In this document: piece after piece, positions 2 to 757 of the stretch
How the letters are laid out: every line of letters begins with the position of its first letter
Position numbering within the stretch: position 1 is the first letter of the stretch
IMG/VR virus record: IMGVR_UViG_2681813226_000012
Direction: 5' to 3' (one strand)
DNA length: 4,292 bases
Origin: a virus
Taxonomy: Duplodnaviria; Heunggongvirae; Uroviricota; Caudoviricetes
The notes under the pieces: generated by a model
What the model saw: the letters and a program-made list of their open reading frames with translations, nothing else
Database searches by the model: none
What the model was told of the DNA's origin: nothing
Position numbers and translations under genes: made by a program

Positions 2-757
2 GCGGATTTACAGCGCACATTTGAGGAGAAAATAGCCGCGCAGGCACAAACGTTTGAAGAAAAACTGGCTTCTCAGTCTGTGGTATTACAGAAGTGCGTG
101 ACGGGTGATGATGTGCGTCCGATGCTTGAGCAGATGGTGAAAGAGGCAGTGAGCCATATTCCTGTTCCGCGCGACGGTCGTGACTACGATCCGGATGTTC
201 TGCAGAAGGCGGTGAATGATGCGGTCGCGAAAATACCGGTACCGGCAGACGGTAAAAGTATCACTCCGGATGATGTGCATCCGATGCTTGAACAGATGGT
301 GAAGGAGGCGGTAAGCCATATTCCTGTTCCGCGTGATGGTCGTGACTACGATCCGGATGTTCTGCAGAAGGCGGTTCTGGAGGCGGTGAGTGCCCTGCCG
401 GCTCCGCAGGACGGGCGTGATGCCACGGCACTGGAAATACTCCCCGCCATTGACGATCAAAAATCCTTTCCCCGGGGCTCGTATGCCACACACCAGGGTG
501 GACTCTGGCGGGCGTATGAAAAAACGTACGGGATGCGGGGATGGGAATGCCTGGTTGACGGGGTGGCGGATATTGATGTCAGCATGACGGGTGAACGGTC
601 GTTCTCTGTGGTGGTCCGGCAGAGCAGTGGCCAGCGTACGGAAAAAACATTTTCCCTGCCGGTGATGCTCTACCGTGGTGTGTTCAGAATCGGCGAAACT
701 TACCACCCCGGCGATACGGTGACGTGGGGGGCTCGTTGTGGCACTGCAACAGTATGA
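2..757 (+). CDS. 3' portion of a phage structural protein with internal tandem repeats; 5' end lies upstream of the window. Function uncertain: its position just upstream of the head-tail connector suggests a head-module protein (capsid, decoration or head-fibre type), but the sequence does not let me decide.
   Basis: The reading frame is open from base 2 to the TGA at 755-757; the ORF track's start at 80 is only an internal GTG, and the translation continues upstream as ...ADLQRTFEEKIAAQAQTFEEKLASQSVVLQK.... It contains a TFEEK-type repeated motif, two 54-codon tandem repeats, and a non-repetitive C-terminal region of about 100 aa. Same strand and close spacing to the downstream connector gene. 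Confidence 0.7.
   Translation, partial: ADLQRTFEEKIAAQAQTFEEKLASQSVVLQKCVTGDDVRPMLEQMVKEAVSHIPVPRDGRDYDPDVLQKAVNDAVAKIPVPADGKSITPDDVHPMLEQMVKEAVSHIPVPRDGRDYDPDVLQKAVLEAVSALPAPQDGRDATALEILPAIDDQKSFPRGSYATHQGGLWRAYEKTYGMRGWECLVDGVADIDVSMTGERSFSVVVRQSSGQRTEKTFSLPVMLYRGVFRIGETYHPGDTVTWGARCGTATV
107..430 (+). repeat. In-frame tandem direct repeat of two 162-nt (54-codon) units, 107-268 and 269-430, each with a 27-aa sub-period (core motif AV-x-x-IPVP-x-DG-x-D).
   Basis: Direct codon-by-codon comparison: the first 108 nt of each unit (107-214 vs 269-376) differ at 8 positions, 7 synonymous and 1 Arg->His. The last 54 nt of each unit are much more diverged at nucleotide level but keep the AV..(I/L)P(V/A)P.DG motif. 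Unit 1 encodes DDVRPMLEQMVKEAVSHIPVPRDGRDYDPDVLQKAVNDAVAKIPVPADGKSITP; unit 2 encodes DDVHPMLEQMVKEAVSHIPVPRDGRDYDPDVLQKAVLEAVSALPAPQDGRDATA. Confidence 0.9.

Follow-up and report, generated by a model that had tools for sequence, protein, structure and literature searches.

The open reading frame (ORF) that begins the 4,292-nucleotide (nt) stretch of viral DNA studied here (IMG/VR record IMGVR_UViG_2681813226_000012; the whole stretch is called the window below) is, judging by its sequence, part of a separate gene adjacent to the portal gene, and its customary name of 'portal protein' is an artefact of an Escherichia coli allele in which the two genes are fused. We label this gene, at window positions 2–757, Ext; it is ORF59 of phage BP-4795 (GenBank AJ556162). 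The Ext sequence has long been in databases, wrongly annotated as portal; the CBM5/12 fold accounts for its last ~50 residues, the only placeable part, and a literature search found no study of an Ext protein. As to function, we favour, with confidence that is about evenly balanced, a reading of Ext as a portal-tethered accessory head protein that probably lies inside the capsid.

The separate identity of Ext is evident at its junction with the portal gene. In phages Stx2_EH1910, BP-4795 and Lys8385Vzw, a 454-amino-acid (aa) portal gene ends in a TGA that overlaps the ATG (as ATGA) of a separate ORF starting MTERELS or MNERELS, and in YYZ-2008, 2851 and WGPS6 a homopolymer 15 nt upstream is longer by one G (G6 vs G5), which yields a single ORF of 859–861 aa (fusion junction ...AMFRGDTEKMTEREL...). 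Among 63 E. coli-type copies, 39 carried G6 (fused) and 24 carried G5 (separate). Junction state tracked the 300-nt flanking haplotype (nearest neighbours agreed in 85% of cases, vs 53% expected by chance), so the G5/G6 difference is mainly a heritable allele, and sequencing error as its source can largely be rejected; one copy in each of four haplotypes was discordant, which could be error or a real switch. The Ext frame was intact in 24 of 31 fused and 15 of 19 separate alleles, and thus relaxed selection on Ext in fused alleles was not seen. The junction lies outside the window, and a 99.9%-identical genome (L003) suggests that the window copy has the G6 state.

Beyond E. coli, Ext was a separate ORF in all 33 loci in which both ORFs could be read (32 from a scan of GTDB, described below, and one from Salmonella, L006), overlapping the portal stop by 1–17 nt. 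Its frame relative to the portal was −1 in 24 of these loci and +1 in 9, and never the same; a conserved programmed frameshift is thereby ruled out, and translational coupling fits. The candidate site for such a frameshift, A AAA TGA at the junction of G5 alleles, was rejected on the same grounds, since the relative frame varies by lineage and no slippery site is shared. A separate Ext ORF is also found in BP-4795, Salmonella FSL SP-016, Lys8385Vzw, Rhizobium RHph_X2_26 and Pseudomonas IME307 (genus Detrevirus), and the Ext start methionine is conserved together with an M[NDT]EREL motif. The 'portal protein' label arose because the G5-to-G6 change fuses Ext to the portal in ~60% of E. coli copies, and it has been inherited by RefSeq names and by the PHROGs families phrog_2271 and phrog_1289.

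Ext lies outside the portal fold. In the 861-aa 'portal protein' of YYZ-2008, portal profiles match only residues 54–382 (Pfam PF04860) and 45–388 (TIGR01537); the window ORF corresponds to residues ~475 onward, where no portal profile matches. The window ORF matches the 'portal' family phrog_2271 only over its C-terminal half (positions 616–833 of 859), and NCBIfam holds no model for Ext. The preliminary description had doubted that positions 2–757 encode a canonical capsid protein, and this doubt was borne out: the ORF matched no capsid or decoration family in Pfam or PHROGs, and an AlphaFold2 (AF2) model showed a long helix, two short helices and small β domains in place of an HK97 fold. 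Nor did known decoration and head-fibre families (lambda gpD, T4 Hoc/Soc, phi29 gp8.5 and others) give a profile or structure match, and Phage_Mu_F (PF04233) was not matched in Pfam by E. coli Ext or nine other Ext proteins. Membership of a known decoration, head-fibre or tail-fibre family, which had also been envisaged, thus found no match in profile searches, and the recognisable piece is a CBM5/12-like end module only.

The major capsid protein is instead a protease–capsid fusion, encoded directly after TerL and before the portal, two to three genes upstream of Ext and outside the window. The gene order in YYZ-2008, Stx2_EH1910, BP-4795, 2851, WGPS6 and Lys8385Vzw is HNH endonuclease, TerS, TerL, a 645-aa ORF, a 61–73-aa ORF, portal, Ext and adaptor (the 61–73-aa ORF is annotated in five of these six records, with none listed for 2851). 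The 645-aa ORF carries Peptidase_S78 at residues 48–152 (E = 1.9e-8) and Phage_capsid at residues 386–635 (E = 5.2e-14), and also matches phrog_617. The expectation from synteny that a capsid gene should lie at 2–757 fails because this phage group encodes its capsid as a protease fusion before the portal; the suggestion that upstream extension might reveal a separate protease and capsid gene was confirmed through these relatives. The capsid fusion (L001, 5325–7262) has a coiled-coil linker, and in Burkholderiales, Sphingomonadales and Moraxella relatives protease and capsid are split into two genes. The small ORF between capsid and portal is conserved at 55–73 aa (L001, 7307–7528; phrog_829), and Rhizobium phage RHph_X2_26 has an additional gene, for an SGNH hydrolase, between capsid and portal (L112, 1169–2383).

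The window copy of Ext is incomplete at both ends, neither of which the preliminary description had mentioned. At its 5′ end the ORF runs off the window (the ATG sits 60 nt upstream in relatives); it stays open for 251 aa and then stops. This stop at 755–757 is not the natural end, because G6 replaces the G7 of intact alleles at 726–731. With the missing G put back, the frame runs on as ...TVTWGGSLWHCNSMTGDKPGEAHSSGWTLAAKRGRDAGGGK to a stop at 838–840, and the restored C-terminal extension (...GSLWHCNSMTGDKPGEAHSSGWTLAAKRGRDAGGGK) overlaps the GTG of the adaptor gene, an overlap that fits translational coupling. Through this 1-nt deletion the window copy has lost the last 35 residues of the end module. 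An identical lesion (...VTWGARCGTATV, then stop) was found in four IMG/VR loci (among copies reaching that far) and in the chromosome of E. coli O157 FDAARGOS_293 (L003), where RefSeq names the product 'phage portal protein, frameshifted'. The window matches that chromosome at 99.9% identity over its full length, and two more genes of the prophage there are damaged, J by a frameshift and L by truncation (RefSeq). The window copy of Ext is a dead allele (a pseudogene) in a decaying O157 prophage; across E. coli, ~22% of Ext copies are broken.

Ext has four parts: a long N-terminal helix, a variable shaft or spacer, a β-rich domain and a terminal CBM5/12-like module of ~60 residues (Table 1). 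The sequence features that had been noticed in the ORF are all present, namely TFEEK repeats (two, at aa 6–10 and 17–21), a PVP-x-DG array (four [IL]PxPxDG motifs spaced by ~27 aa, at nt 158–178, 233–253, 320–340 and 395–415) and a Trp/Tyr/Gly-rich C terminus (3 W, 5 Y and 13 G in the final 108 aa). The two shaft units (107–268 and 269–430) are identical at 42 of 54 aa and 125 of 162 nt, and a repeat search recovered a 119-nt core of 90% identity at 162-nt spacing, so the duplication is real and not due to chance; Tandem Repeats Finder reported nothing over window positions 1–900, where the array amounts to just two copies that are 77% identical in nt. Across E. coli the shaft forms a variable-number tandem repeat, with landmark spacing of 607–1,579 nt in 162-nt steps (1–7 units), and intact Ext proteins are 245–569 aa long (most commonly 405–407 aa). 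The AF2 model of an intact copy (P0001, 99% identical) has a helix at residues 3–51, two short helices split by PxPxDG turns, and the β-rich domain. A 19-nt near-repeat in the region of the C-terminal domain (491–509 and 785–803; 17 of 19 nt identical) falls in different frames and is probably due to chance.

Orthologues share the amphipathic N-terminal helix (~35–50 residues) and the conserved C-terminal domain, with a middle part that differs completely by lineage: helix repeats with PxPxDG or LPxPEPLPDI, collagen Gly-X-Y, or coiled coil. True collagen Gly-X-Y tracts occur in the Paraburkholderia and Phyllobacterium orthologues (L094 and L096; Pfam Collagen, E = 1e-28 and 3.5e-30) and a Gly-X-Y tract also in P0112 and P0113, and a Caballeronia orthologue has long coiled-coil repeats in its middle part. 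No Gly-X-Y tract (PF01391) was found in the window copy, which has helix/PxPxDG repeats instead. The Ext family is therefore fibre-like, though the window member is not collagen-like, and the collagen-bearing orthologues imply that the family would form a trimeric fibre.

The family is widely spread. A profile of the C-terminal ~150 residues, searched against 1.84 billion proteins, matched 7,209 cluster representatives at E ≤ 1e-3 and 586 at E ≤ 1e-30; among the best 150 matches the domain was almost always C-terminal, in proteins mostly of 200–500 aa. A scan of GTDB with a profile of the Ext C-terminal domain (one genome per species) returned 40 loci, from Enterobacterales, Pseudomonas, Burkholderiales, Rhizobiales and Sphingomonadales; these counts, like those from IMG/VR, are drawn from samples and are not a census. 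In the 33 readable loci outside E. coli, the order was TerL, protease/capsid (fused or as two genes), portal (443–505 aa), Ext (167–556 aa) and adaptor, and in most enterobacterial loci a small ORF was detected that separates capsid from portal. Overall, the order TerL, protease/major capsid, small ORF, portal, Ext and Ad1 adaptor was found in ~35 loci of Gamma-, Beta- and Alphaproteobacteria.

Within Ext, the end module is the part with a recognisable fold. The sole specific fold matches of the Ext model were chitin-binding domains of chitinases, CBM family 5/12 (the others were generic helices), with Foldseek giving a probability of 1.0 over ~50 columns at 22–28% identity; the predicted structure of the end module thus resembles solved chitin-binding domains. 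By sequence, full-length E. coli Ext scored 20.3 bits against Pfam CBM_5_12 (PF02839), below the 26.2-bit cut-off, the Morganella orthologue scored 33.1 bits, and precomputed annotation assigns PF02839 to many homologues from Klebsiella and Salmonella; the truncated window ORF had no PF02839 match, and a sequence search of the PDB with Ext gave only marginal CBM-type matches (E ≥ 0.037). Among viral proteins (BFVD), most structural neighbours came from uncultured phages and were of collagen-repeat or ChiC_BD type; a few resembled tail fibres.

The end module is also strongly conserved. Between E. coli and nine other genera, the last 60 residues of Ext were 52–72% identical, and in the same comparison the capsid polyprotein was 42–77%, the portal 44–68% and the adaptor 26–71% identical; at the farthest distances (Pseudomonas, Burkholderiales and Alphaproteobacteria) the end module retained 52–68% and capsid and portal 42–54%. 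The N-terminal 45 residues of Ext were hardly alignable outside Enterobacterales. Such conservation of the end module suggests an invariant, possibly non-protein ligand, which may be DNA or, after release, peptidoglycan glycan, a polymer that chemically resembles chitin.

Reading frames and profile comparisons indicate an in-frame fusion of the portal C terminus to Ext or its end module in three independent lineages (the E. coli G6 alleles, P0135 and a Moraxella clade). The fused G6 form is present in phages 2851 and WGPS6, the former of which Strauch et al. are said to have described in 2008 as an infective Stx2c phage. P0135, a metagenomic cluster representative of 1,237 aa from a lineage distinct from E. 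coli, has a full portal domain, ~24 helix/LPxPEPLPDI repeats and the Ext C-terminal domain in one frame. In Moraxella phage Mcat9, the 479-aa portal (L114, 3226–4665) continues through a low-complexity linker into ...YKGVFSSDVAYQVGDFVTRNGSLWHCKSACQGDFNHENWTLAVKKG..., and no separate Ext gene was found in the Mcat9 genome. The Moraxella clade (P0271–P0291 and P0377–P0390) consists of HK97-family portals of 473–521 aa with a C-terminal CBM5/12-like module of ~50 residues. The best 120 homologues of the Mcat9 portal include 38 of at least 470 aa, a long class with 51–99% identity to it. When the end-module motif was sought with a strict regular expression, 26 of the 38 long portals matched vs none of the 82 shorter ones (421–451 aa); among the long portals that the expression missed, the three C termini inspected carry variant forms of the motif. 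Alignment of Moraxella portal ends with the Ext module by hhalign gave a probability of 98.7% (E = 1.6e-16; 50% identity over 48 columns). By homology, then, the end module stands in cis on the portal C terminus in one clade and in trans on a fibre in others.

In solved portals the C-terminal crown faces the capsid interior, and we propose an internal location for Ext because the portal fusions are made at this C terminus. On this proposal, the N-terminal helix of Ext would dock on the portal crown, and a tether of no fixed length would suspend the end module within the head along the axis of the portal, where its ligand may be DNA or, after release through the tail, peptidoglycan glycan; by analogy with SPP1 gp7/Mu gpF and the P22 portal barrel, Ext might act in DNA packaging, retention or ejection. 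Several points weigh against this proposal. Both the placement of Ext in or on the virion and the docking of its helix on the portal are inferred. Because the ORFs overlap, any single indel near the junction fuses portal and Ext; the fusions in E. coli and P0135 could therefore have arisen by accident and been tolerated because the gene is dispensable, and long-term maintenance in cis is shown by the Moraxella clade only. A collagen-like shaft, a variable number of repeats and a terminal domain of CBM5/12 type are the usual marks of an external phage fibre, and a collagen-like protein within a capsid would be, to our knowledge, without precedent. The predominance of collagen-repeat or ChiC_BD proteins among the BFVD neighbours of the modelled structure, with a few that are tail-fibre-like, points the same way, and the end module is not notably basic, so its charge gives no hint of DNA binding. 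A paper on the Pankowvirus phi330 (PMC12502783; virion proteome at PRIDE PXD061229) reports mass spectrometry of virions, with peptide maps, in the text and supplement consulted, for the short-tailed phages only.

These points feed an alternative that we regard as rather unlikely but worth weighing in full, namely that Ext is an external trimeric head or neck fibre (a whisker), anchored to capsid or neck by its N-terminal helix, whose CBM5/12-like tip binds host or environmental glycans in reversible first-contact adsorption; the gene would then be dispensable and its fusions to the portal neutral accidents. Genuine collagen repeats and coiled coils in orthologues, a shaft copy number of 1–7, CBM5/12 as the sole specific fold match and the collagen-repeat, ChiC_BD and tail-fibre-like phage proteins among the BFVD neighbours would all suit such a fibre, as would the broken state of ~22% of E. 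coli copies, which fits a dispensable gene. Known head and neck fibres, T4 Hoc and fibritin among them, offer parallels: the helix-turn repeats of Ext recall the shaft of the phi29 head fibre (as cited in PMC12796354), and the head fibres of RcGTA bind capsule polysaccharide (PMC7296036). Yet the end module is kept in cis on the Moraxella portal C terminus, across portals 51–99% identical, in a position that known portal structures place inside the capsid; an external fibre requires these fusions to be non-functional relics, and their conservation argues otherwise. Fused E. coli alleles, moreover, keep the Ext frame intact as often as separate ones, the tip, presumed to bind a receptor, is better conserved than any other part from E. 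coli to Rhizobium and Sphingobium (the reverse of the usual host-range arms race), and the Ext gene does not adjoin the capsid gene.

A bolder form of the internal proposal, which we offer as speculation and consider improbable as a whole, is that Ext and the Moraxella portal appendage represent an unrecognised and very widespread class of portal-tethered internal head fibre. Here a tether that could be of any length, whether a disordered linker, helix-turn repeats, a coiled coil or a collagen triple helix, would hold a CBM5/12-like module at the portal crown. The module would serve as an end anchor of the packaged genome or as an ejection gate, or would leave through the tail and bind peptidoglycan glycan while DNA enters; in E. 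coli, two G tracts (G5/G6 at the junction and G7/G6 in the end module) would switch the protein among free, portal-fused and truncated states.

Less probable still is that Ext acts only during assembly, as a portal-tethered, scaffold-like factor whose end module binds the interior protease/delta region of the capsid polyprotein, nucleates the shell on the portal, and is then removed by the prohead protease and so is absent from mature virions. The translational coupling of Ext to the portal gene in a head module that has no separate scaffold gene would be consistent with this, as would a capsid protein that carries its own protease and coiled-coil linker, the tolerance of portal fusion (which fits action inside the procapsid) and the largely helical character of Ext, like that of scaffolding proteins. 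But the end module is better conserved than the capsid/protease polyprotein it would bind, known scaffolds show neither collagen-type shafts nor free variation in length, a separate scaffold is not needed where an HK97-type capsid protein has a delta domain, and Ext is often broken in prophages whose other head genes look intact.

We consider it very improbable that a long portal protein merely ends in this region as its C-terminal domain, with separate ORFs as sequencing or annotation artefacts or products of programmed frameshifting: RefSeq and PHROGs do call the 859–861-aa ORF a portal protein, G6 alleles are the majority in E. coli and A AAA TGA at the G5 junction could in principle permit a −1 slip, but none of the 33 loci outside E. 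coli has Ext in frame with the portal, the start methionine and M[NDT]EREL motif are conserved, stand-alone proteins of 200–500 aa dominate the best 150 family matches and BP-4795 has two separate ORFs. A divergent major capsid or known decoration protein, for which only the position in the head module speaks, is essentially excluded, the capsid reading being refuted by the lack of any such match in Pfam and PHROGs, the bona fide Peptidase_S78 and Phage_capsid gene upstream, and a predicted fold of helix and small β domains that is not HK97-like.

As a portal-tethered accessory, Ext would resemble several known systems in part. SPP1 gp7 and MuF proteins are portal-associated minor head proteins whose gene lies just 3′ of the portal gene and which occur both free and portal-fused. 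Like SPP1 gp7/Mu gpF, Ext is encoded directly downstream of the portal, is found free or portal-fused and would be accessory, not shell-forming, but this is a likeness of position and not membership: no sequence or profile similarity was found between them, Ext is fibrous with a CBM5/12-like end module, and its binding to the portal is our proposal. With the C-terminal barrel of the P22 portal, Ext shares a long α-helical extension after the portal crown that would project along the capsid axis, and in fused E. coli alleles the portal chain runs straight on into the Ext helix; the P22 barrel, in contrast, is an integral 12-helix tube, whereas Ext is normally a separate polypeptide with collagen-type (trimeric) variants and a globular β end.

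Among external fibres, phi29 gp8.5 and Ext have in common a repeating helix-turn shaft, a presumed trimeric state and a dispensable or accessory character, the gp8.5 shaft being a supercoiled triple helix-turn-helix according to work cited in PMC12796354. They differ in that gp8.5 has an N-terminal base domain on the capsid exterior and a gene beside the capsid gene, whereas Ext has only an N-terminal helix, a gene beside the portal gene and portal fusions; no sequence similarity was found. SPP1 gp12 (collagen-like) and T4 Hoc are external, non-essential capsid accessories or decorations, and together with the RcGTA head-spike fibre (Rcc01080), a flexible glycan-binding capsid accessory that binds capsule (PMC7296036), they would be possible functional analogues if Ext were external. 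The genes for Rcc01080, Hoc and gp12 lie elsewhere in the genome, and the proteins attach to capsid pentamers or hexamers and show neither portal fusions nor detectable homology to Ext. The CBM5/12 domains of Serratia ChiB and Streptomyces ChiC (ChBD) sit in glycoside hydrolases, whereas the Ext module sits in a phage head-module protein; in its E. coli copy the module falls short of the Pfam cut-off, and its carbohydrate binding is putative.

Reference models derive from an E. coli fusion allele, and as a result prophage genes in their thousands bear the names 'portal protein', 'portal protein, frameshifted', 'carbohydrate binding domain protein' or 'gp6-like connector, partial'; recognition of Ext as its own gene would mend these labels, and intact two-gene loci need no longer be called pseudogenes. 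The TerL, protease–capsid, portal, Ext and adaptor module is common in Proteobacteria, including the long-tailed Stx1, Stx2a and Stx2c phages of enterohaemorrhagic E. coli and IME307, and its most conserved element is a small domain that has repeatedly been attached to the portal C terminus in evolution. An end module inside the head would make a portal accessory of a new kind; one outside would mean that these phages bear a glycan-binding fibre that has gone unnoticed and is possibly relevant to adsorption and host range.

Table 1. Features of the Ext gene and its surroundings (window coordinates unless a relative's locus is named)
Feature	Position	Strand	Remarks
Junction G tract, G5/G6 polymorphic	L001 8811–8840; L002 8918–8946		~75 nt upstream of window position 1 in relatives
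Ext ORF as found in the window	2..757	+	Frame 2, codon 21 onward, to premature TGA; from translation
Remainder of N-terminal long α-helix, coiled-coil-like	2..106	+	TFEEK at nt 17–31 and 50–64; AF2 model of P0001
Shaft, two tandem 162-nt (54-aa) units	107..430	+	Each unit comprises two helix + [IL]PxPxDG turn sub-repeats
Conserved β-rich C-terminal domain (RDATALEILP... to ...GGGK, stop)	416..840	+	Read across the frameshift; predicted local distance difference test (pLDDT) score 80–92
Terminal ~60-residue CBM5/12-like module (SLPVMLYRGVF...W.LAAKRGRD)	653..840	+	Interrupted by the frameshift
G6 homopolymer (G7 in intact alleles)	726..731	+	1-nt deletion; alignment with YYZ-2008 and Stx2_EH1910
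Displaced Ext 3′ end, frame 1 (SLWHCNSMTGDKPGEAHSSGWTLAAKRGRDAGGGK, stop)	732..840	+	TGA at 838–840 overlaps adaptor GTG at 837
Premature TGA from the frameshift	755..757	+	
gp6-like head–tail adaptor (Ad1/head–tail connector)	837–1163	+	Conserved downstream neighbour of Ext; GTG start at 837
Head-closure protein	1173–1523		
HK97 gp10-like protein	1520–1966		
Tail completion protein	1963–2307		
Major tail subunit with immunoglobulin-like C-terminal domain	2367–3082		
Tail chaperones G and T	3088–3462 and 3486–3767		
Tape measure gene	starts at 3821		

The window is matched by 92 phage records, comprising long-tailed Stx1a-, Stx2a- and Stx2c-converting phages and relatives (among them YYZ-2008, 1717, 2851 and BP-4795), and many O157:H7 genomes match it at 99.6% identity with one 162-nt unit fewer. 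Downstream of Ext, the gene order is as the preliminary description had given it: adaptor, head closure, gp10-like, tail completion, major tail, chaperones and tape measure. The major tail subunit is labelled immunoglobulin domain-containing in YYZ-2008, and a Salmonella homologue has faint Ig_2/Ig_3 matches. The tail chaperone gene ends in ...AGA AAA AAG TAG, with the slippery heptamer A AAA AAG (3453–3459) just 5′ of the stop; the chaperone T ORF lies in the −1 frame relative to G, and A AAA AAG is the expected site of the G/GT programmed frameshift. Terminator-like GC hairpins with a T run lie on the + strand at 2327–2345 (between the tail completion and major tail genes) and at 3777–3798 (between chaperone T and the tape measure gene), both inside the late operon; terminator-like sites in total numbered five, vs a mean of 3.5 in shuffled sequence, and were not above expectation.

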